A stretch of 64,000 nucleotides of DNA from Candidatus Nanosyncoccus sp. (GCA_045604885.1 JAZUOY010000015.1:1424-65423); one strand, 5' to 3'; shown: positions 39,466-63,630, numbered from the stretch's first letter. Numbers and translations: made by a program. The notes: generated by a model from the letters alone, not told the origin.

Positions 39466-40170
39466 CTATCTTTTTAGGCCAGCGTCTAAGTATTTTTTGA
39501 CATAATCCCATCCCCAATTATTGTCAAAGCCGCTAGTTGTGAAATTGCCAAATTTAAAATATGGTAGTCCGCCACCAATTAAATTCCAAGCGCGTTCGGT
39601 ATCCTCTGTTACTTTAGACAAGAGCTTGTGCTCAGAAATACAACTTTCAAAAGTCTCACTTAAACCGATCGACTGACCAATTTTCAGCCAGTAGTTATCT
39701 GGTAAATCTTCTATTGGTTCTGAGGTTTTTGATACGCCGATTCCTTGTGATTGATAATCATCCCAGAGTGCTGCCAGTGCAGCATGATAGTATTCCCAGA
39801 ATTTCCCCTCGTCTTTTGCGCAATAAATTGCTTCAGCGCTATTGCGGGACATTTCGCTATGATTTTCGCCGTATTCGTAGAGTATATCTGTTACGCGAAC
39901 TTCATATAAAATATCTTTCCCGACGATATAATCTTTTTGGAATTCGTCCTCATGCTTCATGATTGCGCGCGAAAAAGCGCTACAGTATGGACAGGCAAGA
40001 TCAGTATACATAATATAATAGTTTTTTGCATCTAATGCTCCGATAGTAGCGTTTTCGTCCCAGACACTATCTGAATGATTGGTCTTTGTAGAAGAGCTAT
40101 AAATAAATAATGCCACCAGCAAAACCGCAATAACACCAATAATAATCCATTTAATGGCTTTTTTCATCAT
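39466..40170 (-). CDS. Membrane-anchored DsbA/thioredoxin-fold protein; probable start 40170 or 40167
   Basis: YTDLACPYC active site, AEAIYCA, GGGLPYF; AAGGAGG RBS. Confidence 0.88.
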   Translation of the reverse strand: MMKKAIKWIIIGVIAVLLVALFIYSSSTKTNHSDSVWDENATIGALDAKNYYIMYTDLACPYCSAFSRAIMKHEDEFQKDYIVGKDILYEVRVTDILYEYGENHSEMSRNSAEAIYCAKDEGKFWEYYHAALAALWDDYQSQGIGVSKTSEPIEDLPDNYWLKIGQSIGLSETFESCISEHKLLSKVTEDTERAWNLIGGGLPYFKFGNFTTSGFDNNWGWDYVKKYLDAGLKR

Positions 40171-40795
40171 CCTCCTTTTTCTTCTGACGCCACTGTTCAT
40201 CTTTTATTATAACATAGCTCTCTACGCCAACCCTTTTGATTGACAGTAATAAGATGATAATTGCGACACCAGTTAAAATGCCTGATATTGCTCCGGCTAT
40301 CGCATAACTTCCACTAGAGAAAATAGAACCGATAATGGGCGTAATTAAGGCAGTGCCACAAGTAGGGCAGCCACTTCCAAGTAATGCAAGCCCAGCTGCA
40401 ATACCGGCGTTCTGCACAGATGAGGCAGAATCATTTTGTTCGTTTTGCTTAGGTTTGGTATTATTGAGTCGTTTTTTCCAGACTAGAACAATGAGAGAAA
40501 TAAGAGTTGCCTGTAAAAACGTAATAGAAAATAATAATAGCCAGTCCCAGAAAGTCTTGCCAACTCCAAAAAGTGATAAGAGGCTATCTCTTAAGATGGT
40601 AATTTTGCCTTCTAGATCGGTAGCGAAGAACAAATTAAGAGGTCCAAATCCGCCCGATAAGAGGCTAAGTAGGATACCAAATATTACAAAAACCATTAAA
40701 AAAACAATCCAGAAACGAAGTCTTCTAGTGGCAAGTATGATGCCGAGTATGGCAAGATGCCATTCATCACACCATTTTGCGATCTTTTTTTGCAT
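40151..40795 (-). CDS. Integral membrane protein with a CxxC motif (GCPTCG)
   Basis: Four hydrophobic segments; overlaps the DsbA-like gene. Confidence 0.8.
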   Translation of the reverse strand: MQKKIAKWCDEWHLAILGIILATRRLRFWIVFLMVFVIFGILLSLLSGGFGPLNLFFATDLEGKITILRDSLLSLFGVGKTFWDWLLLFSITFLQATLISLIVLVWKKRLNNTKPKQNEQNDSASSVQNAGIAAGLALLGSGCPTCGTALITPIIGSIFSSGSYAIAGAISGILTGVAIIILLLSIKRVGVESYVIIKDEQWRQKKKEDDEKSH

Positions 40796-41089: not shown

Positions 41090-41144
41090 ATGAAAATAAC
41101 GACTAGCTATTGAAAAAAATCACAAAATGTGATATAATGAGAGT

Positions 41145-41876
41145 ATGGAACGCTTTTCTAGAGAAAAATACGAAGATTTTTTAAAAAAGATAGATTTAGC
41201 GAAATATCGAGAGAAGTATGCTAAGGTGAAGACTGTGGAGATGGATTTGCCATACGAAATTCAGGCTTTGCCAACAATTTATGCTGAGTACTGGGATAAC
41301 GTGAACCATAGAGAGGAACCACTTTCCTATGAGGAATATTACAAGTTATATTGGAATTCTTGTAAAGATGAGATTATGGCATTTCGTAAGAAAACTGGTT
41401 TTGGCGAAGATTGTGATTGTTATGAACGTGGCTTAGAAGCAAGAATCTATCGCACCTGGGCATCTTTAATTACTCAGATTCAGGGTGGATACGTAGCTGA
41501 GGAGGTTTTTGGCAAGGGAAGCGTCAGAATGAGCCCTGAGCTTGATCGTAAGAAAATTGATATTATGATCGTTAATAAGGATGGCAGTGAGCGTTTGCGG
41601 ATTCAAGTCAAAAAAGTTACTCATCGTCCAGAAATTGCCAGGATGCATAAGAATGTGAGAAATGAAAATGGTTCCGTAGATTTGTATTATGTAGTACCAT
41701 CTCCGCGTAATTATGAGCATCCGACCTATCTCATTAATGGTCGTAATCACAAAAGAGGCGAATTACGTCCATTTACGAAAGATTTCGTGAAATGGAATCC
41801 GGCGACCGCAACTATGGATAGACTAGATAATGGATTTATCATTTTCACAAAGAATGCTTTTTTGGGACTAGAATAA
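41145..41876 (+). CDS. TaqI-family type II restriction endonuclease
   Basis: KY..VKTVEMDLP, GLEARIYRT..S..TQ and PELD...ID...IQVKK match my recollection of TaqI-family motifs. Confidence 0.8.
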   Translation: MERFSREKYEDFLKKIDLAKYREKYAKVKTVEMDLPYEIQALPTIYAEYWDNVNHREEPLSYEEYYKLYWNSCKDEIMAFRKKTGFGEDCDCYERGLEARIYRTWASLITQIQGGYVAEEVFGKGSVRMSPELDRKKIDIMIVNKDGSERLRIQVKKVTHRPEIARMHKNVRNENGSVDLYYVVPSPRNYEHPTYLINGRNHKRGELRPFTKDFVKWNPATATMDRLDNGFIIFTKNAFLGLE

Positions 41877-43062
41877 TTTGGTAGTCGGGGCTTAGCCCCT
41901 TTTGCGTTAAAAAGGATCGTAGGCGATAGTCTAGAATTTGGTCAATGCTCGGTTTGATGCCCAGCTCCTGACATTTTTTGTAAGCAGTAGATTTTCGTGA
42001 GACAATCTCTGGGATTTGGACAAGGATATATTTATTATTGCGTCCATCTTCCAGGTTGGTCTCGTAAACTGCTTGACCAGTTGATCCAGACCCAGCAAAA
42101 AAATCTAAAATGATAGAGTTAGAAGTATTAGTCATGCGAATAAAATATTTTAGCATTTCTACTGGCTTCGGAGTATCAAAAATCCCTTGTAATCCTAATC
42201 TTTTGAGGTCATGTGTGCCTTGCCGTGAATAAAAATTAAGAATTGATGGAACATTATCTTCACTTTCTGTAAGGTATTTGATGGCGTAAGGGCGACCGTT
42301 TTTGAAATTGAGGCGATGTTTTTTCGCAAGTTCTATAAAATGTTCATCGGTAGCCCACCCTCTTGTCGGTAAAGGACTGAGGTGAAGATTGATAGACGGA
42401 ATATCGACTGCTCGGGGGGTACTAGGAGTAGAAAGATCTACGGCGAAAAAAATCCTACCCTTGTTATCTAACTGTGAATAATTTCTCAGCCACGTGATGT
42501 TTTGCTCATGACAGATAGACTTGATTCGTTTCGTAAGAGTTTTTTCTGCAGCGGATCTGCCTTGTTGCTTGAAAATAGTTTTAATTTCATTTTGAAGATC
42601 ATTGATCATTTGTTTTTGCTCCGGAATATCCGTGCGATGTACTATAAATTTCCGAATATTCTTCCTGTTTTTTGCATAACAGAGGACATATTCATGAACG
42701 GTGTTAATTAATTTGGAGTTACTACGCTGAGCTTGTTTGGTGATAAAGGTGCCAATAAAATTTTCGCTTCCAAAAACGCCATCACAGCAGATTCTCAGAT
42801 GAGGAAATTCGTTATCGTCTATAGAAATTAAAATCACCGCATCATCCGCCATGAGTCTTCGAGCTGCCTCTAAACGTGCGTGTATAAAAGCGACCCAATC
42901 ATTGCTGGTATTCTTATCTTTGTAGCTTTTCTGGGTCTGAGTATTATATGGTGGGTCGATGTAGATTAAGTGAATTGCATTCTGGTATTTCGTTAAAAAA
43001 TCAGAATCTTGCATTACATCAAGATTGTCTCCAATATAGACTTCATGATTAAGCGATTTCAT
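41845..43062 (-). CDS. Beta-class (Mod-like) amino DNA methyltransferase; probable start 43062
   Basis: IYIDPPYN precedes TPKP and LDFFAGSGSTG; convergent with and overlapping the REase. Confidence 0.92.
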   Translation of the reverse strand: MKSLNHEVYIGDNLDVMQDSDFLTKYQNAIHLIYIDPPYNTQTQKSYKDKNTSNDWVAFIHARLEAARRLMADDAVILISIDDNEFPHLRICCDGVFGSENFIGTFITKQAQRSNSKLINTVHEYVLCYAKNRKNIRKFIVHRTDIPEQKQMINDLQNEIKTIFKQQGRSAAEKTLTKRIKSICHEQNITWLRNYSQLDNKGRIFFAVDLSTPSTPRAVDIPSINLHLSPLPTRGWATDEHFIELAKKHRLNFKNGRPYAIKYLTESEDNVPSILNFYSRQGTHDLKRLGLQGIFDTPKPVEMLKYFIRMTNTSNSIILDFFAGSGSTGQAVYETNLEDGRNNKYILVQIPEIVSRKSTAYKKCQELGIKPSIDQILDYRLRSFLTQKGLSPDYQIILVPKKHSL

Positions 43063-43102
43063 TAAGGTCATTATAACAAAAAAGGTCTATTGCGACCAAT
43101 TT

Positions 43103-43187
43103 TGGTAGCCGAGACGGGACTTGAACCCGTATGAATTTCTTCATTCGATTTTAAGTCGAACGCGTATACCAATTCCGCCACTCGGCC
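43103..43187 (-). tRNA. tRNA-Leu (TAA)
   Basis: Anticodon arm TTCGA-CTTAAAA-TCGAA, long variable arm, CCA end. Confidence 0.96.
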
Positions 43188-43440
43188 AATTTTGCTTGGA
43201 GGACTATTCAACCCAAATGTTGAACCATCCCTTATTATTTTATCAGAATATCTTTGTAGTGACAAGTCGGCGGAGTTAATGGAATATACTCCTCTCTCTA
43301 GAATAGAGGTGGAAAGGGCTAGGGCGATGGAGGATTATGTCTTATAACGTACCAACTAAAACCTAATTAAACCATTTGTTACCTAGCATAGTTCTCCCAC
43401 GTCTCTCTCAAGCGCCCGAAGGGCGCTGTATTGGTTAGCC

Positions 43441-43579
43441 TGGTGAAATCGGGCGCTCATCAAACCCGTTTGTTTGGAATGATAGTGTATATCTAATACT
43501 GGAGATTACTTTGGTTGGAGTGCGGTCCTCTTCACAGGCAGGTATTGTCTTTTTAATGGTGAAATCGGGCGCTCATCAA
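43441..43579 (+). repeat. 23-bp direct repeat tggtgaaatcgggcgctcatcaa (43441-43463 / 43557-43579)
   Basis: Exact match at 116-bp period; weaker similarity continues for about 25 bp. Confidence 0.93.
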
Positions 43580-43844
43580 GCCCTTCCTGTTTAGATATAT
43601 GAGTATACCCTACCTAGGGACTCCCAGGCTACCCCGTTTAGGACGAAATACGTGCCTTATTTGCTAGCATCTTTGGTGATTTCGTCTGGTAGTATCACTC
43701 GTGTAGTTTCTTTGGATTTATTTTACTAACAGATTAGTTCATATGATAGCAGGGTTTTCCCGCCCGGCCTGCTTTTAATTAAAACACTCTACCGCTAGCA
43801 TTGTTTCTCTGATGTTTTTTCTTGGTGGCTGTTGATGCTAGTGC

Positions 43845-43873
43845 TTGCCATGATTAAAATTATCTGGTATAAT
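43845..43873 (+). promoter_or_regulatory. Sigma70-type promoter
   Basis: TTGCCA-17 bp-TATAAT with a TGn extension. Confidence 0.8.
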
Positions 43874-43881
43874 CATGGCAT

Positions 43882-44003
43882 CATCCAATTCCCACATTTA
43901 CAACTCAAACGGTAACCCAGAGACCTACATAGCGTCCAGAAAGGATGTCACGTAGGTACATAGGGCACTATGCTCTAGGTTACCGAAAAGTGGGAGTTGG
44001 ATG
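43882..44003 (+). ncRNA. Candidate structured RNA / leader (multibranch)
   Basis: Nested stems 43882-43895/43990-44003, 43910-43922/43973-43985, 43923-43928/43952-43957, 43959-43963/43968-43972. Confidence 0.6.
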
Positions 44004-44053
44004 CTAACACCTCGTGGCATCCTTTTTGTGGATGTTGCAGAAAGAAGGATACT

Positions 44054-44887
44054 ATGCAAGACCACAGCGATAATCAACAACCCCAGCCTTACCGAGTCAG
44101 AGTTGGCTGTTTCGTGACACTTAGAAACAATGATGATAATCGCGTCACTAAGTATAAAGTAGTAAGGTCGCTATACTCGTCAAATAATGCGTGGGCGGAA
44201 ACAAGCATTAAGGAGACTCCTACTTCTGGGAGTCTTTCTGTAAGTTCCCCACTTGGAGCTAGTCTGATTGGAAAAAAAGCTGGTGACATTGTTGGCAAAT
44301 ACAAAGTCATGCTAATAGAAGGTGGCGACCATGTAGTGCAAAATATTCAAGACTCGTATGAGCAGGATACCGCTGATAAAGCTAATAAGCTAAAAATGCT
44401 ATTGGAAAAGATACGGTCTGGAGAATGGGTCAAAGCATACGTTACGCGCATTCATCACGTCTGCATCCCAGTCAAAACTCGTCGCGCCAACATTAAGACC
44501 TCATTCCTTCCTGACGGTGTTATGGAGTCTATCGTTATATCGAACATGGCAGCCGAGGCAACAAATCTCTATAGGATAGATTTGTTTCTCTATCTCGACG
44601 ATGACCATGAAATTGGTGCCATGGCGGAAATGCTAATTGAGCGAGACACAGTGAGTGTTCTATGTAGCGACGTTCATAATCCATTGCCAAAAAATTGCTT
44701 AAACGAGAATTATGATTATGTCGTTGCTGATGAACAATCCTCTGAAGAGGGGATGGAATTAGTTCATGGTTTAGAAGTAAAATTATCGCCTGAAGACAGT
44801 AGCTTCACATGTAGGACCGCGCCTCACTCGACAACTAATCACCACTACATGAGAATAGTCCACGAGGACAGTTGTGAGTGTTATTAG
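44054..44887 (+). CDS. Protein with an N-terminal GreA/GreB C-terminal-like domain plus an unknown domain; probable start 44054
   Basis: VRVGCFVTL...LSVSSPLGASLIGKKAGDIV; aagga RBS before ATG 44054. Confidence 0.7.
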   Translation: MQDHSDNQQPQPYRVRVGCFVTLRNNDDNRVTKYKVVRSLYSSNNAWAETSIKETPTSGSLSVSSPLGASLIGKKAGDIVGKYKVMLIEGGDHVVQNIQDSYEQDTADKANKLKMLLEKIRSGEWVKAYVTRIHHVCIPVKTRRANIKTSFLPDGVMESIVISNMAAEATNLYRIDLFLYLDDDHEIGAMAEMLIERDTVSVLCSDVHNPLPKNCLNENYDYVVADEQSSEEGMELVHGLEVKLSPEDSSFTCRTAPHSTTNHHYMRIVHEDSCECY

Positions 44888-45467
44888 TGTTTTTGGAAAA
44901 ACGGAATACGCAAGTAGTAGCACGATTGGCGTCGCTATGTTTTTCGGTATACTTGCAACAGTTTTTTTATTTTTCCTAGCTAGCTCTAAAAACCACAACA
45001 AAACGACTAGAAATAGAAAGCACAACACCTTTGTGTATCGACCTCGCTCGATCAATGATGTACAGGAGCACCAGAGAATTAGACGCTGGGAGATAAAGCG
45101 CGCTGCTTTTGAGGAACAAAAGAAAACACCATTCTTCAAAGACTGGAAGCGCGAGCAATATCAGTGTCAATATGGTAAGTGTGCTTGGTGTAGGAAGTCG
45201 ATAGACCTTCATTCGCCCGATACCCAAGTCGATCATATTAAGCCATTGATGTGGTGGGGGACTAATGAGTACGATAACTTGGTTCTAGCTTGTAAAGAAT
45301 GTAATGAGGAAAAAGGCGATAGTCAATTTGGCTGGGCTGGTGCTAAAGGCATGCCTGGCGAGAATAGAAAACCAGCCTGGATTAGGCCTAATAGATGCTG
45401 TAGAAATTTCAAAGAGCAGAACTCTCAGACAGTATCATATACTACTCTGAACTCAGACAAGCCTTAG
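44874..45467 (+). CDS. Membrane-anchored HNH endonuclease
   Basis: N-terminal TM helix; CAWC...VDHIKP...GTNEYDNLVLACKECNEEKG. Confidence 0.88.
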   Translation: MSVISVFGKTEYASSSTIGVAMFFGILATVFLFFLASSKNHNKTTRNRKHNTFVYRPRSINDVQEHQRIRRWEIKRAAFEEQKKTPFFKDWKREQYQCQYGKCAWCRKSIDLHSPDTQVDHIKPLMWWGTNEYDNLVLACKECNEEKGDSQFGWAGAKGMPGENRKPAWIRPNRCCRNFKEQNSQTVSYTTLNSDKP

Positions 45468-45569
45468 AGAGCCTCTTATGGCCTCACAGAGGGTGTTTTG
45501 ACGGGGTGTTTTTGAGGTTGTCTTTCTCTTCGGAGGCTTTAGCCGACGAAAGCGCGTTAGCGCTTGCCC

Positions 45570-45598
45570 TTGCCTTAGTGTTTTAGACTTGATACAAT
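45570..45598 (+). promoter_or_regulatory. Sigma70-type promoter with no downstream ORF
   Basis: TTGCCT-17 bp-TACAAT with a TGn extension. Confidence 0.72.
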
Positions 45599-45604
45599 GA
45601 AGTC

Positions 45605-45990
45605 CTACACAACGGTATCAGGTAAGGAACGCTGGTACTGTGCTAGCTGAAATAATGCTAGGAGGAAACGCACCTTCCCGTGGTGGGCTGGCTAATGATT
45701 TCCTCGGATAGGTTGCCCATTGCTAAAACAGCCTTGATGGTAGCAGTAATGCCTGGACTAGTAGGCATGAAGTATCATCTGCCACACTATTGTAGCAAAA
45801 GGCGGACAATGGTTTTAGCGAATAATCCGATTCCAAGCCTGACGAAAGCAGGTTGCCGATGGACCTTCTAGCTGCCTTGGCACTAGGTCTGTAGGCAGAG
45901 GGATTATTTGCTATGCCAAAAAAAGCTAGCATAAATACAGGCGAGCAACATGAAGCTGGGAGAAACCTCGGCAAGCTGGTGACCTACCTT
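45605..45990 (+). ncRNA. Candidate large structured ncRNA (~385 nt)
   Basis: About ten stems, many with G-U pairs, downstream of a clean promoter; no credible ORF. Confidence 0.55.
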
Positions 45991-46108
45991 AAGTCTATAG
46001 AAGAGAAAAATATAACGCGATTCAAGGGTGATTCTTCCAGTAGTATGGTTGAGCCTGTTAGCGGCATCACAATTCTCTTTTAGAAGTGTTTCTGGTATAA
46101 TGATGGTA

Positions 46109-47677
46109 ATGTCATTGCTGCCAGGAGAGATAGATAAGACCAAGCTACGTTACATTGTTTACGTGCGCAAATCTACTGATGAGAAGGGAAAGCAGGAGAG
46201 GTCTGTTGAGGACCAAATCGCTGATTGCCTAGACTTAGCCAAACGTAGAGGGTTAAATATTATTGGTGAGCCTATTGTTGAAAAGCGTTCTGCTAAGGTT
46301 GATGGAGGCAGACCACTTTTTGCTAAAATGATTAAATTAATTCGTGACGGTAAGGCTGATGGCATTATTTCCTGGCATCCGGATCGTTTGTCTCGTAATC
46401 CGATTGATGCGGCCACGATTGTAGACATGCTGGACAAGAACATAATCAAAGACCTTGCCTTCCCTACTTGTGAGTTTTCAAACGACTCCAGCGGCAAGAT
46501 GCTACTCAATATATTATTCGCTATCTCAAAGCAATATTCGGAGCATATCAGCGAGGGTGTTACTCGTGGGCTTCGTAGAGGTCTTCAAGAAGGAAAATCT
46601 CAAGGTCGTTACGTCTGGGGTTATACCCGTAGCAAAGAAACTGGACTATATGAGCCAAGTGAATATTTTGAGATTGTCCAAGAAGCATGGGAGATGAAGG
46701 TGAACGGTGCTACGGATGCCGCAATTCTAAAGTTCTTAAAGAAAAATAATCTACGGAGAGCGGTCGAATCAAATCCTGGAAGATTTATAGAGCCTGTCAA
46801 GGAAACCCCAAAGAACATCTTCAAGAACCCAATTTACTATGGTGTTTTGGAGCAGGCAGGACAAGAAGTGGACCTAATTGAAGTTACTGGTGGCGCTTTT
46901 CAGCCTATGATTACTTATGAAACCTTTGCCAAAGTACAAGCTATGGAACGTAGCGGCAAATCGCATGGTGGGCGCAAGAAATCTGGTGGTATTTTCTACC
47001 CACTAAAGCACATGGTAACTTGTGGCGTCTGCAACCAAACTATGGTCGTCTATAAAAGCCGTAGCGGCCATGGGAAACGTGCTAACTACTTGTATTTTGA
47101 GTGTAGGAATAAAGATTGCACTCGTAGTCCCAAGGCTATAAGAGCAAGGGAAATATTTGAGCCGCTATTTGAAGCTGTCCGCCAGTTGCAGTTTACTGAG
47201 GAAGAAATAGAGAAATACAACCAAGAGATTGATAGCTTTAGCGAAGAGAGAATTGTTGAGCTACGTCAGGAAAAGAATAGTATAACTGCCGCTATTGCCC
47301 ACAAGAACAAAGAACTTGAGAAACTGTCTCTTAGCACACCCAATTTGACTAGTAGAGCATTAACTCTAATACGAAAGAGGATTGATTCGCTGTCCAATGA
47401 ACTAGATGAACTTGAGGAGAGCTCTAAATCTATTGATGCTCAAATAAAATCAGCTCAGCGAAGTAAGGTTTCTACTGAGCAAGTGTTGAACCTCCTAAAA
47501 ACGCTTCCTGACAAGATGGAGAATGGCTCCGCCGCTGAAAAAGATGCGATTGCCCGATTATTGTTATTGAACCTCACTATTGACGCACAAAAAAGGCCTC
47601 ATTTCCTCTGGAAAGAGCCTTTTGCTAGTCTGCTTGAATCCCGAAAAGGTGATTCTGGAGGCGCCTACCGGAATTGA
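46109..47677 (+). CDS. Large serine recombinase (resolvase, recombinase, zinc ribbon and coiled-coil domains); probable start 46109
   Basis: YVRKST catalytic motif, DRLSR, CGVC...C...C zinc ribbon, coiled coil; own TG-TATAAT at 46096-46101; last codons are antisense to tRNA-Cys. Confidence 0.93.
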   Translation: MSLLPGEIDKTKLRYIVYVRKSTDEKGKQERSVEDQIADCLDLAKRRGLNIIGEPIVEKRSAKVDGGRPLFAKMIKLIRDGKADGIISWHPDRLSRNPIDAATIVDMLDKNIIKDLAFPTCEFSNDSSGKMLLNILFAISKQYSEHISEGVTRGLRRGLQEGKSQGRYVWGYTRSKETGLYEPSEYFEIVQEAWEMKVNGATDAAILKFLKKNNLRRAVESNPGRFIEPVKETPKNIFKNPIYYGVLEQAGQEVDLIEVTGGAFQPMITYETFAKVQAMERSGKSHGGRKKSGGIFYPLKHMVTCGVCNQTMVVYKSRSGHGKRANYLYFECRNKDCTRSPKAIRAREIFEPLFEAVRQLQFTEEEIEKYNQEIDSFSEERIVELRQEKNSITAAIAHKNKELEKLSLSTPNLTSRALTLIRKRIDSLSNELDELEESSKSIDAQIKSAQRSKVSTEQVLNLLKTLPDKMENGSAAEKDAIARLLLLNLTIDAQKRPHFLWKEPFASLLESRKGDSGGAYRN

Positions 47678-47729
47678 ACCGGTGTAAAAGGTTTTGCAGA
47701 CCTCTGCGTAACCACTCCGCCAAAGCGCC
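47656..47729 (-). tRNA. tRNA-Cys (GCA)
   Basis: GGCGCTT...AGAGG-TCTGCAAA-ACCTTT...AGGCGCC-TCCA. Confidence 0.95.
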
Positions 47730-58392: not shown

Positions 58393-58481
58393 GCGCCTGT
58401 GGTGGAATTGGTAGACACGCTACCTTGAGGTGGTAGTGGCGATTTTAAGCTGTGCTAGTTCGAGTCTAGTCAGGCGCACCA
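58393..58481 (+). tRNA. tRNA-Leu (GAG)
   Basis: Anticodon arm CTACC-TTGAGGT-GGTAG, variable arm, CCA end. Confidence 0.95.
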
Positions 58482-58518: not shown

Positions 58519-59159
58519 ACTCTGGTTGTTCGTAATAGTACGAGTAGTCAACGCCTTTCATAAACATTTCGCGGTCATCTATTTTATTAGTCAATGCCGC
58601 TTTGATAAGATACTTTATATCTGAGCAAGAATTGAACTGGCGCAAATTGGAAATTATCTTTTGCAATGTTCTTTGTACGAATTTTGCCGGCAAAATCATA
58701 TAGACCGCCAAAAATAAATGAATGAATTTGCTGCAGGCCTTTAACGGTTCCAACTTCGATATGGCTGTAAACTGGACTATCGAAGAGTTCGTAGGCCTTT
58801 TTCTGGCTACGTCCATCAATTGTCTTGTCTGAATATTCGAACCATTCGAGAAATTCGTTAGCTTTCTCGTTATGAATAGCGCGGGCGAGTTGAGAAATTC
58901 CAGTCTGATCTAGGACGGTAGTCATATATCTCTTGCCGTCATCTGCAGTTATTTTCAGTTCGTTACTATTTGTCACGAACTGACTACCTTTATTGCGGGA
59001 TTTGAGTTGGCGCCAATAGTTGTCGGCTTTCTTATAATCTGCCTCTTCATTAATTGCGGCGACAACATCAACAGCGGAAAACCACCACTTATTTGTCTCA
59101 TCATCCCAAACAGCACGAACTTCGTAATCTTTGTAAAATCTGATGGACATTTTGCTCAT
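58517..59159 (-). pseudogene. BRO-N-like/Fic protein pseudogene (internal deletion and frameshift)
   Basis: N-terminal part runs to FAPVQFL; the family C-terminus DIKYLIKAALTNKIDDREMFMKGVDYSYYYE is in another frame; no HPFxxGNGR in between. Confidence 0.75.
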
Positions 59160-59287
59160 GCTATGGAACTCCTTTTATAACCTTATTATATCATGGTTTT
59201 TATTTTTGCCTTGACATAAGCGAATTACAGCTATAAAATAACTATAAGGATATTTAGATACTATTACTAATAAAAGGGAGATGAGAG

Positions 59288-59998
59288 ATGTCTAAAATAA
59301 AAAAAGTTATTGTTGGGACTAGTGTTCTAGCTGGTTTGAGTGTGTTGAGTATTCCGGCATTATCTTATGCTGATACGCAATGTGTGACAGGAACGACCTG
59401 TAGCGAGTCTGCTACGCTTGACACTACCATCAATGTTGCAGAAATGATTAGCGTCCAATTCATCTCCTATTCTGGCGCTAGCTCCGTAACGAAGAACTGT
59501 AATTCTCAGGATCAGACTGAAAGTTCTGATGGTTGTACTGGCGCAGACCAGATTGCTAGCTCCACTCTCCTCCCTGGCACTTCCAACGTAGCGAATAACT
59601 CATCTTCAGCTTATACAGAGCTTCGCGTAAGTACTAATGCTCCAGGCGGCTATATCCTGACCTTAATAGACGCAGATGAGAATACTAGCCTCGTGAATAC
59701 AGCAGGTGATGTTATTAGTGCAATTAACTCTCAGCCCGTTGGCACTTCCAATCCAGGTTGGGCAGTATCTATCAACGGTACCGGTTGGCAAATTATGAAG
59801 CATAACAAAAGTTCTGACAATACAATCACCGCTGAGACTCCAATCACTGTGAAGACGAACAATCCTTCTACTTCTGGCACGACATCCACTACTATATCCA
59901 ATGATCTCTCCACTGTATATTATGGAATTGCAACGTCTTCTGCTCAGCCAATTGGTATATATACAGATATTGTAGAATATACTGCTACAACACAATAA
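59288..59998 (+). CDS. Secreted WxL-like surface protein A
   Basis: Signal peptide; VSTNAPGGYILT; C-terminus YGIATSSAQPIGIYTDIVEYTAT. Confidence 0.72.
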   Translation: MSKIKKVIVGTSVLAGLSVLSIPALSYADTQCVTGTTCSESATLDTTINVAEMISVQFISYSGASSVTKNCNSQDQTESSDGCTGADQIASSTLLPGTSNVANNSSSAYTELRVSTNAPGGYILTLIDADENTSLVNTAGDVISAINSQPVGTSNPGWAVSINGTGWQIMKHNKSSDNTITAETPITVKTNNPSTSGTTSTTISNDLSTVYYGIATSSAQPIGIYTDIVEYTATTQ

Positions 59999-60024
59999 TA
60001 TATTATATAGTGATGATCATAATT

Positions 60025-60047
60025 TAACCCCGTAAGGGGTTATTTTT
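60025..60047 (+). terminator. Intrinsic terminator
   Basis: taacccc-gtaa-ggggtta followed by ttttt. Confidence 0.8.
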
Positions 60048-60094
60048 ATTAAAGTGACTACAGGGGTGAACTTATATTGGTGGAAAAGATCCTG

Positions 60095-60163
60095 AAAAAA
60101 GTCTAAAAAAGTCTAAAAAAGTCTAAAAAAGTGCTTGACTTTAACATAAGCAAGATATAAAAT
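60095..60163 (+). promoter_or_regulatory. (AAAAAAGTCT)x3 plus a partial unit directly upstream of TTGACT-17-TAAAAT
   Basis: Tandem units at 60095-60132; -35 at 60135-60140; -10 at 60158-60163. Confidence 0.85.
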
Positions 60164-60215
60164 AGAAAATACAAAGGTCATATAAATAAACAACAAAATA
60201 GAAAGGAAAATAAAT

Positions 60216-60905
60216 ATGTCCAAAAAATCTACAAAAATTATCGCTGCTGCAGGCGTAGTTGCAGGTCTTGGTGTTGCTGCTCTTCCAGCAATGACATTTG
60301 CTACTTCAACTGTTAAAGGTCAAGTTAATCTTACCGCTGAAGTCAACGAAGCTATTGCAATGACGATCAAGGGTAATGTTGCTGCTGAAGCTTCTACCCC
60401 AGGCGTAGATGTTTTCACTCCAACTGGTGCTTCAACGATTGATGGTCACGCTGTTGGTACAGTTTATGATGCTGATAATCTTCAAGCTTCTTCATCTTAT
60501 GTTTCTTTGCTTCCAAACGCTGCAGACACGACTACTGCAACTTCAGAGATCAAAGTTTACACTAACGCTATTGGTGGCTTCTTCTTAACAGTTGAAGATG
60601 CTGACTCTGAGACTTCTCTTGTACGTACGGGTGCTACTCAAAGTGGTGATCCTCTAGCTTATGCTTCTACCGATATCATTGAAGCTAACGCTACTATTAC
60701 TGCTGGTCAAAATCACTGGGCATACAAAGGTGGTAGCGTAACCAACTTTGCAGCTATCACTGGTACTGCTGCTACTGTTTATACTCAGAGTGCTCCAACT
60801 TCTGGTGGTGCTACGATCAATATGACTTACGGTGTTTCTACTTCCTCTGATCAGAGTACTGGTACTTACACAGATACCATCATCTACACTGCTACAACTA
60901 ACTAA
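60216..60905 (+). CDS. Secreted WxL-like surface protein B (probable major subunit)
   Basis: Paralog of 59288-59998; strong GCT/ACT/TCT/GGT/GTT codon bias; own promoter and terminator. Confidence 0.75.
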   Translation: MSKKSTKIIAAAGVVAGLGVAALPAMTFATSTVKGQVNLTAEVNEAIAMTIKGNVAAEASTPGVDVFTPTGASTIDGHAVGTVYDADNLQASSSYVSLLPNAADTTTATSEIKVYTNAIGGFFLTVEDADSETSLVRTGATQSGDPLAYASTDIIEANATITAGQNHWAYKGGSVTNFAAITGTAATVYTQSAPTSGGATINMTYGVSTSSDQSTGTYTDTIIYTATTN

Positions 60906-60923
60906 TTTAGTAGTTTAGATGTT

Positions 60924-60948
60924 AATCCCCCAGCAATGGGGGGTTTTT
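60924..60948 (+). terminator. Intrinsic terminator
   Basis: aatccccc-agcaat-ggggggtt followed by ttt. Confidence 0.75.
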
Positions 60949-61012
60949 GATGAAATGCCTCTTGTAATCTTACCTTAAAACATATATAATAAGATAAATA
61001 ACAAGGAGGTTA

Positions 61013-61978
61013 ATGGCTAAAAAACTAAAAGTATTTCTTGCTGCATTTCTGGCAGTCGCAACTTTCTCTATTTATCAAGTTTTTTCTGTAAATACGGTAT
61101 TTGCGGATGAGGTTGAGCGTCACCCGATCCTATTGCAGATTTCCCCGACTAAGCAAAAAATTTCTCTCACACCAGGGTCTTCCTATGTTGGATCATTTAT
61201 TGTGCATAACGCCGGTACGCAGAAGTTCCGTTATTCTGTCTCTGCTACTCCGTATAGTGTCAAGTCGGAACAATACGATCCGAATTATTCTGAGTTAACA
61301 GCATACGCTCAAATGTCCGAATGGATTACTTTTGACAAAGATACTCAGAGTGGTGATCTAGAACCTGGAACGATGGTAGATGTTGCCTTTACGGTGAATG
61401 TTCCAGCGGATGTCCCAGCCGGTACGCAGTATGCAGCCCTGATGGCGCAGACGGAAGACGGCAATGCTGAGGATGCTACGATTGCCGTAGTGCACAGAGT
61501 AGGTATGATTCTAGCTGCGACGGTTCCAGGTGATACTCGTTCTTCTGCAGAAATTGTCAAAAACAATGTTAGTACCTTTTATTTTAACCCCCCAGTTACT
61601 ATGTCTTCTCTCGTAAAGAATACTGGTAACATAGAACAAACAGCTAGCTATACATACAAGATTTATCCACTTTTCTCTAACGAGGCAATCTATAGCAATG
61701 AAGAGACTCCTCAGAAGTTGGATATTTATCCAGACACGAGTAGATTTAACTCTATGACTTGGGAGGGTGCACCGACACTCGGCATCTTCTGGATGGAGCA
61801 AACCATAGAAGTAGCGGATCAGGTTTCCGTGGTGGGGAAGTTTGTGCTCATCTGTCCACTCTGGCTGATCTTTATCATCTTTGCACTACTCTTCCTTGCG
61901 ATCTTCTGGTTAATTTCTCGCGCAAAGAATCGCAACAAGAGATCAGAGAATACTCATAAGGAGGAAGATAATGCTTAA
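61013..61978 (+). CDS. DUF916/DUF3324-like (WxL-interacting) membrane protein 1
   Basis: Signal peptide, two Ig-like halves (VNVPADVPAGTQYA; VKNTGNI), C-terminal TM and basic tail. Confidence 0.72.
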   Translation: MAKKLKVFLAAFLAVATFSIYQVFSVNTVFADEVERHPILLQISPTKQKISLTPGSSYVGSFIVHNAGTQKFRYSVSATPYSVKSEQYDPNYSELTAYAQMSEWITFDKDTQSGDLEPGTMVDVAFTVNVPADVPAGTQYAALMAQTEDGNAEDATIAVVHRVGMILAATVPGDTRSSAEIVKNNVSTFYFNPPVTMSSLVKNTGNIEQTASYTYKIYPLFSNEAIYSNEETPQKLDIYPDTSRFNSMTWEGAPTLGIFWMEQTIEVADQVSVVGKFVLICPLWLIFIIFALLFLAIFWLISRAKNRNKRSENTHKEEDNA

Positions 61979-62936
61979 AAACTTTAAGAAAATAGTGGTT
62001 GCGGCGTTGGCGGCGGTCACTATCATGGCTTTGCCAGTTGCTAATGTGTGGGCGGAAGATGCTGGCGACGCTTCAAGTAGCTCTTGGCTACAGGTCGCTC
62101 CAGTATCAAATAGAATTAAACTAATTCCTGGTAGCGAGCTTGATTATTCTATCGTAGTGACAAATGTTGGTGAGAAGAACTTCAATTTTACCACTTTTGC
62201 AGCACCATACACAATTATAGATGAAGGATATAATCTCAGCTTTACAGATGAGACTCTGCGCACTCAGCTTTCACACTGGATTCAATTCATCAATCCAGAC
62301 GGATCATTGACAGATAAATACACTGGTTCTGTGGCAGCTGGTCAAGATGCAGTTGTGAATTATCGGGTTTCTGTACCTTCTGATGTCCCATCCGGCGGTC
62401 AATATGCGGTAATTCTTACACAGACAGAGGCTTCATCTGATGACATTGATGCTGCTGGCGTGATTACGGTTTCTAGGATTGGTATGGTGGTCTATGGCAG
62501 AACTGATGGTGAGACGACAGAGCAATCTGAGCTTGTTAGCTACGAGATCCCAAACTTCATGACTGGTGGCAAGATTACGGCTTCATCAGTCGTGAAAAAT
62601 ACTGGTAATGTGGATTTTGAGACCAAATATCACTTCACGGTGACTTCTATTGTTGGCAAGGAGCTATACACGTCAAATCCTGTTTCTAGCCTGATTTTAC
62701 CGGATACACAGCGTCGTGAGGAATTTGTCTGGGAGGATACGCCAGCGATCGGCATTTTCCAGGTACGCTATGCTATAGAAACTTATGGCGAAACGATCAA
62801 GGATGAGACGACTTATGTACTAATCATTCCAATTTACCTGATTGTGGTTACGATTTTACTCTTGACAATTATAATCATATGGATTATAATGCTAATCAGG
62901 AAACGCAAAGAGCGTAAGTCTCGCCTCTTGGTCTAG
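61971..62936 (+). CDS. DUF916/DUF3324-like membrane protein 2
   Basis: Paralog of the upstream gene (VSVPSDVPSGGQYA; VKNTGNV; C-terminal TM and RKRKERK). Confidence 0.72.
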   Translation: MLKNFKKIVVAALAAVTIMALPVANVWAEDAGDASSSSWLQVAPVSNRIKLIPGSELDYSIVVTNVGEKNFNFTTFAAPYTIIDEGYNLSFTDETLRTQLSHWIQFINPDGSLTDKYTGSVAAGQDAVVNYRVSVPSDVPSGGQYAVILTQTEASSDDIDAAGVITVSRIGMVVYGRTDGETTEQSELVSYEIPNFMTGGKITASSVVKNTGNVDFETKYHFTVTSIVGKELYTSNPVSSLILPDTQRREEFVWEDTPAIGIFQVRYAIETYGETIKDETTYVLIIPIYLIVVTILLLTIIIIWIIMLIRKRKERKSRLLV

Positions 62937-63021
62937 AACAAGAAAAGAGATTTACAACTGCGAAATCTTTGCGCAAGCCAAAACAAAAATTACAAAATAT
63001 AAATAATAAAGTGAGTGTGGA

Positions 63022-63630
63022 ATGAAAGTGAGCAAGAAAAAATTGCTGGGTTTCAGCGGGTTGGCTCTGGTTGCGGGACTGACCACCTATGCTGCAACTA
63101 TTCCTGTTGGCGCAACATCTGTCAGCGGGGAAGTAAATGTGATGGTTGATGTCTATAGTATCAACTATGAGACGCGGATTGATTCTCCGCTAGACGGTGC
63201 AACCTTTGATCAGCCTGTGGTTGATTTTGAAGAGCGGCACAGTAGAGTAGATAGTGTAAAGTACTATTTGACCAATGTGACGACTGGAACGACGTATGAA
63301 CTCAGCCAATATGAGATCTCTGGAACTGATGTAAGTGGCGTGACTACATTTACATTGGATCTTGATAACTACGGTGGTTACGGAGAATACATTTTCCGTT
63401 CCGTAGTGTTGTCCTATGGATCACATCTTGAAGGTGAGGATTCTGTACAGTTTACTTATGTATCTCCAGATTCTCCAAACGTGCCGGATACAGGTGGTTC
63501 TGGGCTAGGTGCGTTCTATGAATCGTTAAACATTTCTAAGTCTGATCTAATTACAACTGGTTTAATTGCCTTCTTGGCGGTTAGCTTGTTGTCGCTATAC
63601 GTAATTCGTAAATCAAAGCGCGAAGAATAG
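63022..63630 (+). CDS. Small secreted protein with an LPXTG-like anchor (VPDTG)
   Basis: Signal peptide, Ig-like body, PNVPDTG, TM helix, RKSKREE. Confidence 0.75.
   Translation: MKVSKKKLLGFSGLALVAGLTTYAATIPVGATSVSGEVNVMVDVYSINYETRIDSPLDGATFDQPVVDFEERHSRVDSVKYYLTNVTTGTTYELSQYEISGTDVSGVTTFTLDLDNYGGYGEYIFRSVVLSYGSHLEGEDSVQFTYVSPDSPNVPDTGGSGLGAFYESLNISKSDLITTGLIAFLAVSLLSLYVIRKSKREE

Follow-up and report, generated by a model that had tools for sequence, protein, structure and literature searches.

The window analysed in this study, a stretch of 64,000 nucleotides (nt) from Candidatus Nanosyncoccus sp. (GCA_045604885.1 JAZUOY010000015.1:1424-65423), contains between positions 59288 and 63630 a cluster of five genes, p1 to p5, which probably encode a small surface pilus. 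All five genes carry only hypothetical annotations. An initial annotation, made from the sequence alone, had described them as five co-oriented genes for secreted proteins, forming two pairs of paralogs and a fifth gene with a VPDTG motif. A check of the open reading frames (ORFs) of the window found these five genes, all on the plus strand and at the same coordinates.

The first gene, p1 (59288-59998), encodes 236 amino acids (aa) with a signal peptide, four cysteines (two likely disulfides), a pilin core and the C-terminal end GIYTDIVEYTATTQ, and its product is considered a minor pilin-like subunit. The product of p2 (60216-60905, 229 aa), whose C-terminal strands end in YGVSTSSDQSTGTYTDTIIYTATTN, is the candidate major pilin. 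The next gene, p3 (61013-61978), codes for a membrane-anchored protein of 321 aa with two immunoglobulin (Ig) domains, which is homologous to the WxL interacting proteins (WxLIP) and a candidate pilin chaperone similar to PamC and PamD of the Pam pilus. Its paralog p4 (61971-62936, 321 aa) has the same architecture; the two ORFs share an overlap of 8 nt, and to judge from this overlap p4 is translationally coupled to p3. The last gene, p5 (63022-63630), encodes 202 aa with the VPDTG motif, a transmembrane (TM) segment and a basic tail, and its product is a candidate basal anchor or terminator.

The locus is flanked by a tRNA-Leu gene (58393-58481) on one side and by tRNA-Val and tRNA-Lys genes on the other, and the surrounding window is ordinary Saccharibacteria core genome with genes for glycolysis, tRNA synthetases, UvrC and SecG. 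Because a close relative (71-79% identity) retains the flanking genes around the cluster, we regard it as a core locus and not as an island.

It had been suggested to follow the cluster across the Saccharibacteria, and there it is conserved. A word-indexed search revealed 230 homologues of p2, and p3 has 122. When searched exhaustively, p2 matched 1,898 cluster representatives at E<=1e-3, and the named ones all belong to Candidatus Saccharibacteria. The gene order was scored by ORF calling in the loci together with searches by hidden Markov models (HMMs) of the families, where A stands for pilin-like, C for p3-like and E for p5-like genes. From the 293 relatives of a GTDB scan the best 79 loci were analysed, all of them from metagenome-assembled genomes of Saccharibacteria or Nanosyncoccus from ruminant and mouse guts. 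The order A (one or two), C, C, E is kept in about 70 of these 79 loci, a recurrence that is far beyond chance. A metagenome scan revealed a five-gene cluster A180-A182-C318-C323-E323 on many contigs of human oral Nanosynbacter; exact matches of its proteins carry the label Candidatus Nanosynbacter sp., and one protein is found on 271 contigs. No usher-sized gene is conserved beside the cluster, which in typical loci comprises five genes only, none of them above ~370 aa.

The pilin-like proteins p1 and p2

The proteins p1 and p2 are paralogs of about 230 aa, as had been noticed from the sequence (32% identity, E 2e-16), and the motifs by which they were recognized are present in both, namely TNAxGG[YF]xLT..DAD..TSLV and a terminal YG..TSS.Q..G.YTD...YTATT. 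Their C-termini read YTATT[NQ], without a sorting signal or a TM segment. In p2 the signal peptide (aa 1-29) is followed by an N-terminal strand, STVKGQVNLTAEVNEAIAMTIKGN (aa 31-54), which is a candidate donor strand, by a variable insert (aa 57-91) and by an all-beta core; the 35-aa insert is all that lies between strand and core. The AlphaFold2 (AF2) model of p2 (pLDDT 89) is all-beta, with one beta domain after the N-terminal strand. Its best fold matches in the PDB, all of them weak (E 4e-3 to 0.1), are the Csu, CS20, CFA/I, CupE, Fim and Pap pilins and the TasA fibre, nearly all of which are donor-strand polymers.

Troman et al. (bioRxiv 10.64898/2026.03.03.709456) used cryo-electron microscopy (cryo-EM) to solve thin filaments from Ca. 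Mycosynbacter amalyticus, which is a Saccharibacterium. According to this preprint PamA and PamB are two-domain pilins linked by donor-strand exchange, PamC and PamD, encoded in the same operon, are PapD/FimC-like with a C-terminal TM helix, and the RbmA-like PamR, which has both a TM helix and a strand at its N-terminus, is proposed to be terminator and anchor. The Pam proteins of M. amalyticus (NZ_CP045921.1) bear the accessions WP_260763277.1 (PamC), WP_260763280.1 (PamB), WP_260763282.1 (PamR), WP_260763284.1 (PamD), WP_260763287.1 (PamA) and WP_260763289.1 (PamT); for PamE the preprint prints WP_26076385.1, and its filament models are 25PZ and 25QA. The supplementary table of the preprint lists PamA as the second most abundant protein of M. 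amalyticus; WxL or DUF916 are not mentioned in the preprint.

Three sets of the p2 family were used, 118 close relatives, 53 representatives and 3 distant members. Among the 118 close relatives conservation within the mature protein is highest in the N-terminal strand region and in the C-terminal strands; the Pam preprint describes the same for donor strand and groove. The sole family that recurs among the p2 relatives is NF058581 (CPR_Pam_pilin_C, 'Pam pilus system pilin subunit', NCBIfam 20.0). It is matched weakly by 39 of the 118 close relatives (best E 4.9e-7) and by 15 of the 53 representatives, in all cases below the curated cut-off of 55 bits. The pilin of one relative, L003, spans positions 3-146 of the 148 model positions (E 3e-4), downstream of its N-terminal strand. 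Scans of all five proteins against Pfam and NCBIfam gave nothing above any cut-off, and the p2-family profile found no match among PDB sequences at E<=10.

The signal peptide of the pilin family (p2 aa 1-29, 60216-60302) exceeds most of the mature protein in conservation, with a mean consensus fraction of 0.84 and 17 of 28 columns at >=90%. This unusual conservation hints at dedicated processing or targeting.

Some members of the pilin family are long and carry lectin-like domains (P0291, P0312, P0345, L026 17715-19778 and L089 2261-3667). In the long forms Fib_succ_major/FISUMP or Flg_new domains lie C-terminal to the pilin domain, and in one of them Laminin_G_3 stands ahead of a C-terminal pilin-like end (SGAYANTIIYTGTTLP). 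These proteins are candidate tip adhesins. The protein P0302 was ruled out as a two-domain pilin; because its N-terminal 300 aa are integrase-like, it is regarded as a fusion or a miscalled ORF. A distant relative (L001 586-6933) contains two divergent modules, each consisting of a pilin-like gene (~200 aa, ending in YTLA), an extra protein and a WxLIP-like gene. The extra protein of ~190 aa is N-terminally anchored, ends in GF[KT]CK and has no family match.

On the minus strand of the window a gene for a DsbA-like thioredoxin with an N-terminal membrane segment (PF13462, 39466-40200) adjoins a gene for an unassigned 214-aa membrane protein (40151-40795). This pair may be the disulfide machinery for p1 with its four cysteines. 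A pairing of MdbA and VKOR, noted in bacteria of the candidate phyla radiation (CPR), can serve as a comparison (PMC6744442).

The proteins p3, p4 and p5 and the relation to WxL loci

The proteins p3 and p4 are paralogs as well (31% identity, E 1e-44). They had been described as 321-aa proteins with two Ig-like halves and a TM segment, and the AF2 model of p3 (pLDDT 89) agrees, as it consists of two beta-sandwiches and a C-terminal helix (283-320, TM). Singly, p3 and p4 remain below all curated Pfam and NCBIfam thresholds. The relationship to DUF916 that had been expected is seen at the family level, where 12 of 22 diverse p3-family members match PF06030 below threshold (best E 1.4e-6); the current name of this family is 'WxL Interacting Protein, peptidoglycan binding domain'. 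The best match of the p3-family profile among PDB sequences is EfmWxLIP1. In a Foldseek search with the p3 model the Enterococcus faecium WxLIP 9i1y_A comes first (E 2.4e-13), together with 9i25, followed by RbmA and then by the chaperones CfaA, CsuC, PapD and EcpB (E 1e-9 to 3e-7). Finally, hhalign of the p3/p4 family against six annotated Firmicutes WxLIPs from Enterococcus and Lactococcus plasmids gives a probability of 97.9% and E 3.7e-13 over 286 columns, from the signal peptide through the TM helix. Because the results for PF06030, EfmWxLIP1, the fold and hhalign agree, p3 and p4 are considered remote full-length homologues of WxLIP (CscA). They also resemble the two PapD/FimC-like two-domain chaperones with a TM helix of the Pam pilus, p3 by its model and p4 by paralogy.

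Orphan p3-like genes for proteins of 283-288 aa with no evident signal peptide occur on the metagenome contigs L147, L149, L164 and L171. On the first three of these they adjoin anaerobic ribonucleotide reductase-like genes (nrdD/nrdG), and as none of the four has a pilin-like neighbour they were set aside.

The protein p5 consists of a signal peptide, a pilin-like N-terminal strand, one Ig-like module and the conserved LNISKSDL.TTG; the VPDTG motif comprises aa 154-158 (63481-63495), the TM segment is located at ~63547-63606 and the tail reads RKSKREE. Directly after the signal peptide p5 contains TSVSGEVNVMVDV and p2 contains STVKGQVNLTAEV, a pattern which is common in the E and pilin families, and two E proteins score on the pilin HMM. 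The xPxTG motif is unvarying in all 60 p5 orthologues from genome loci and is accompanied by LNIS[RK]xD[YF]LxTG, TM segment and basic tail. The E gene is always the last one of the cluster. Its product varies from 200 to 736 aa with the number of Ig-like (FlgD_ig-type) modules, most members having two modules and ~300 aa. Against TIGR01167 p5 gives an E of only 4.5. A sortase, for which a search of the genome had been proposed, was found neither in the window nor within 10 kb of the cluster in one close relative. The one promising candidate from a hunt for TLxTC-type motifs in the window and 89 loci was rejected as a phage-type integrase.

On Firmicutes plasmids, genuine WxL loci encode small LPXTG proteins (L004 3294-3584, L005 147-452, L006 3461-3802) that are made up of a short stretch resembling a beta-strand at the N-terminus, a disordered linker and the anchor. 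Since this is the layout of p5 minus the Ig module, these proteins might donate a strand to the WxL domain.

The WxL/Csc clusters of Firmicutes encode the WxL proteins CscB and CscC, CscA, which is the WxLIP, and the small LPXTG protein CscD (PMC1534035, PMC9772566, PMC10599100; PDB 9i1y, 9i25). WxLIP consists of DUF916, DUF3324 and a TM segment, and a hairpin strand of WxLIP is predicted to make the beta-sandwich of WxL complete (Hassan et al. 2023, PMC10599100). The likeness to these clusters put forward in the initial annotation stands for p3 and p4, which are of the DUF916/DUF3324 type by the hhalign result and 9i1y, and for the LPXTG-like signal of p5, but it is not supported for p1 and p2 as WxL proteins. 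In the HMM search that had been recommended, PF13731 (WxL) matched none of the 118, 53 and 3 members of the p1/p2 family. For a further comparison WxL proteins of real loci on Enterococcus and Lactococcus plasmids were aligned and hhalign was run in three ways; the result for the p1/p2 family is not significant (probability 1-16%, P 0.002-0.05), with short or low-confidence alignments. Either the signal peptide or the last strand alone was aligned, or the alignment was co-linear at a probability of 1%. The latter, from greedy hhalign, places TNAxGG[YF]xLxV on RGxxxGWxLxV and GxYxDTIxYTAT on xSYxxxLxWxL. At the positions of the WxL motifs p1 and p2 have F/Y-x-L and Y-T-A, with no Trp in either of the two motifs. 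A homologue search from a Lactococcus WxL protein returned only 24 close relatives, too shallow to help. In the structure models p3 has its two beta-sandwiches and p2 is all-beta with weak pilin matches; no WxL chain is among the top 50 fold matches of the p2 model. With no PF13731 match and no significant hhalign result, homology of p1 and p2 to the WxL domain is not supported. This negative is a soft one, because genuine WxL-locus proteins are weak on PF13731 too; some of them have Y, F or L at the W positions.

Expression signals and neighbouring genes

The lowest effective number of codons (ENC) of the 53 ORFs in the window is that of p2 (36.1), with 57% T-ending codons, and the codon usage of p1 is average (ENC 51.8). 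Judged by its codons, p2 looks very highly expressed.

The promoter- and terminator-like sites given here, all on the plus strand, are consensus matches only. Ahead of p1 lies a promoter-like site at 59211..59239 (TTGACA-17-TAAAAT, 11/12), and a consensus scan found a terminator-like hairpin with a T-run after p1 at 60025..60042. The corresponding elements of p2 are located at 60135..60163 (TTGACT-17-TAAAAT, 10/12) and 60927..60943, and together with the lowest ENC they fit the earlier statement that the second gene is codon-optimised and separately transcribed. Abutting the -35 element of the promoter-like site of p2, four A6 tracts in exact 10-bp phase (AAAAAAGTCT three times, then AAAAAAGTGC) can be read directly at 60094..60133. 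They read like an UP-element or curved DNA. In relatives A-rich tracts are found at the matching site and the exact repeat is absent. A further promoter-like site precedes p3 and p4 (60962..60990, TTGTAA-17-TATAAT, 10/12). The sole perfect sigma-70-like site of the region (62862..62890, TTGACA-17-TATAAT, 12/12) is located inside the 3' end of p4 before p5 and would give p5 its own transcript.

About 110-130 nt ahead of the start of the major pilin, at 60078-60091, there is a TGTGGAAAAC-like motif, which is also present in L091, L011, L015, L018, L020, L025, L003 and L096. In relatives it is accompanied by a conserved leader (CACAAAGGTCATATAAA ... ATAGAAAGGAAAA), and the two may represent a regulator site and a conserved 5' untranslated region. 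The core octamer GTGGAAAA is not enriched in the window, where it was found 5 times compared to 2.75 expected.

The minus strand in the interval from tRNA-Leu to the locus (58587-59159) encodes a protein with a Bro-N domain (E 5.5e-8), whose C-terminal half looks Fic-like. Because the close relative has an HNH endonuclease gene at this position, it is considered a small variable spot. The stretch ~41100-47700 of the window contains the gene of a large serine recombinase (46028-47677) and two genes for DNA methylases (N6_N4_Mtase). Just upstream of this stretch, at 34-42 kb, the GC content is lowered to 0.37-0.39. The stretch could be a restriction-modification or mobile segment.

Interpretation and comparison with known systems

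We favour the reading that the locus encodes a minimal Pam-type surface pilus, held together by donor strands and not of type IV, with single-domain pilins and p2 as the major subunit. It is called minimal since the parts list of the locus is that of the Pam operon, only smaller. The initial annotation had proposed a non-type-IV filament with a major subunit and membrane paralogs as chaperones or anchors, a description that matches the pilus solved by cryo-EM and is consistent with the weak NF058581 matches of the p2 relatives. Our confidence is limited because polymerisation is inferred and the link of p1 and p2 to Pam is transitive and below threshold; the subunit order, the parts played by p1 and p5 and the attachment to a host are predictions of the same kind.

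Several results weigh against a Pam-type pilus. Neither p1 nor p2 itself gives a match to NF058581, even with the limit set at E<=10, and the scores of their family are far under the curated cut-off (best ~30 bits vs 55). The fold matches of p2 are weak, with none at E<=1e-3 and TM-scores of 0.3-0.5. Both proteins lack the nine-strand N-terminal domain of PamA and PamB and are therefore not two-domain pilins. The Firmicutes homologues of p3 and p4 are believed to keep WxL proteins in non-polymeric form at the wall, and no public sequencing runs carrying the locus are listed. Moreover, the likeness to Pam was judged by the description in the preprint and by the NF058581 model.

In such a pilus p2, as the major subunit, and p1, as a minor subunit with disulfides, would be exported by Sec, each as an incomplete Ig-like domain behind a conserved N-terminal beta-strand. 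The proteins p3 and p4, held in the cytoplasmic membrane by their C-terminal helix, would close the groove left open in new subunits by lending one of their own strands, as PapD-type chaperones do and as is likewise predicted for WxLIP acting on WxL. This chaperone strand would then give way to the N-terminal strand of the following subunit, so that the fibre grows from its base. The strand of p5 would plug the last groove and fasten the fibre to the membrane or, should a sortase cleave the xPxTG motif, to the wall. The fibre would probably serve the attachment to the bacterial host of the epibiont.

As the main alternative, the same genes could encode a non-filamentous complex of the WxL/Csc type, which we consider rather unlikely. 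In such a complex p1 and p2 would be monomeric or hetero-oligomeric and held by strand insertion of p3 and p4, with p5 as a sortase- or membrane-anchored partner, and the complex would act as an adhesin or bind carbohydrates. That p3 and p4 are full-length WxLIP homologues argues for it, as does the parallel gene content of real WxL loci, where a small LPXTG protein and WxL genes are followed by the WxLIP. Further, p1 and p2 are co-linear with the WxL motif positions, distant p2 relatives end in YTLA, real WxL-locus proteins with Y, F or L instead of W are themselves weak on PF13731, and the lectin-like long forms resemble 'large WxL' proteins. However, PF13731 is unmatched in ~170 family members, hhalign against WxL is not significant, and it is the Pam pilin model that is matched by the p2 family. 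The N-terminal strand common to p2 and p5 and the extreme codon bias of p2 also suit a polymer better than a receptor-like adhesin.

The third fold match of p2 is the TasA fibre 8aur (E 8e-3), p2 looks highly expressed, and its conserved signal peptide recalls dedicated processing such as that of TasA by SipW. These points would suit a TasA-like or S-layer-like coat or matrix, in which p2 self-assembles without dedicated chaperones and p3, p4 and p5 are unrelated envelope proteins. Such a coat is improbable, however, as p1, p2 and the 118 relatives have no Pfam match to the Peptidase_M73/TasA family and p3 and p4 show a chaperone-like two-Ig fold; the strict co-conservation of A, C, C, E in order suggests one machine. 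Very improbable appears a pilus of the Gram-positive type with subunits covalently polymerised by a sortase. The invariant xPxTG sorting-like signal of p5 and the sortase family encoded by more than half of the CPR genomes (PMC6744442) point in this direction, but p1 and p2 end in YTATT[NQ] without sorting signal or TM segment, a sortase-like gene was found neither in the window nor close to the cluster in relatives, and the isopeptide-pilin families of Pfam are unmatched by p1, p2 and the 118 relatives.

The new element of a Pam-type pilus at this locus is that its chaperone-like proteins are homologous to the WxLIP of Firmicutes. Since p3 and p4 show this homology, a shared origin and mechanism is suggested for the Pam-type and WxL systems. 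It joins two systems which have so far been kept apart, a CPR pilus solved by cryo-EM and the poorly understood WxL clusters, and gives the latter a concrete mechanism that can be tested, in which strands are complemented in chaperone style and the anchor donates a strand. In enterococci, listeriae and lactobacilli the WxL clusters have been linked to virulence and adhesion. As a tentative idea, possible yet doubtful, the Pam-type pili of CPR and the WxL/Csc systems of Firmicutes could be the two branches into which a single ancient donor-strand system, assisted by chaperones, has split in bacteria that lack an outer membrane. In that system WxLIP/CscA would be the membrane-tethered PapD-like chaperone, the small xPxTG protein the strand-donating anchor, and the WxL domains degenerate pilin domains. 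If true, Firmicutes WxL proteins could form donor-strand-linked chains or short fibres and not merely bind peptidoglycan, and the single-domain pilins described here would be intermediates between WxL proteins and the two-domain Pam pilins.

Saccharibacteria lead a life of attachment to other bacteria, and apart from type IV pili little is known about the way in which they locate and retain a host. Our analysis suggests that animal-associated lineages, Nanosyncoccus-like ones of ruminant and mouse guts and human oral Nanosynbacter, carry a compact Pam pilus. Nanosynbacter strains are culturable and genetically tractable and the system is therefore open to direct test.

From the sortase-assembled pili of Gram-positive bacteria, in which every pilin carries a sorting signal and a pilin-specific sortase is present, the locus departs, with p1 and p2 lacking motif and TM segment and no sortase nearby. 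With the TasA fibres of Bacillus and the archaeal bundling pili the proposed pilus would share fibres of donor-strand-complemented beta-sandwiches in cells without an outer membrane, and 8aur is among the top three fold matches of p2. It differs in having no family-level sequence match to TasA, which needs no PapD-like chaperones and has the accessory genes TapA and SipW.

Chaperone-usher pili of Gram-negative bacteria, above all those of the archaic (Csu) and alternative (CFA/I, CS20) kind, follow the same logic, in which an N-terminal donor strand goes together with an Ig fold that is incomplete. The p2 fold matches CsuA/B, CfaB, CS20, CupE, FimA and PapE, and the p3 model matches CfaA, CsuC, PapD and EcpB. 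In contrast to these pili the locus has no usher, the cell no outer membrane, the chaperones are membrane-tethered and the fibre would be anchored by the TM/xPxTG protein; sequence similarity is absent.

The WxL/Csc clusters share with the locus the remote full-length homology of p3 and p4 to WxLIP, small secreted beta-rich proteins in at least two copies together with a small xPxTG protein, the chaperone-subunit principle, and the occurrence of short and long, lectin-bearing forms. The locus differs in that p1 and p2 give no detectable WxL-domain signal, that it has two WxLIP-like genes instead of one, that the anchor gene is the last one and that no sortase is found near the cluster. WxL proteins are, moreover, described as bound to peptidoglycan and not as polymers.

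From the Pam pilus of M. amalyticus, whose sequences are absent from the best 80 GTDB loci and from the cluster members of the long pilin-family forms, the locus is distinguished by its pilins of ~200 aa (mature) with one domain and an N-terminal strand, whereas PamA and PamB have 38.7-55 kDa and two domains with an internal linker strand. The Pam operon is larger and includes PamE and PamT, compared to five genes here, the invariant xPxTG anchor has no reported counterpart in the preprint, and p1 and p2 are under every curated threshold. Both belong to the phylum Saccharibacteria and have Ig-like pilins that are exported by Sec and form two classes of paralogs. Common to them are also a pair of paralogous two-domain proteins, PapD-like and ending in a TM helix, and apparently one more Ig/FnIII protein that is TM-anchored and has an additional strand at its N-terminus. 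Both lack an usher and an ATPase, both are most conserved in the donor strand and the groove strands, the major pilin appears to be very highly expressed in both, and the relatives of p2 weakly match the model of the Pam pilin C-domain.

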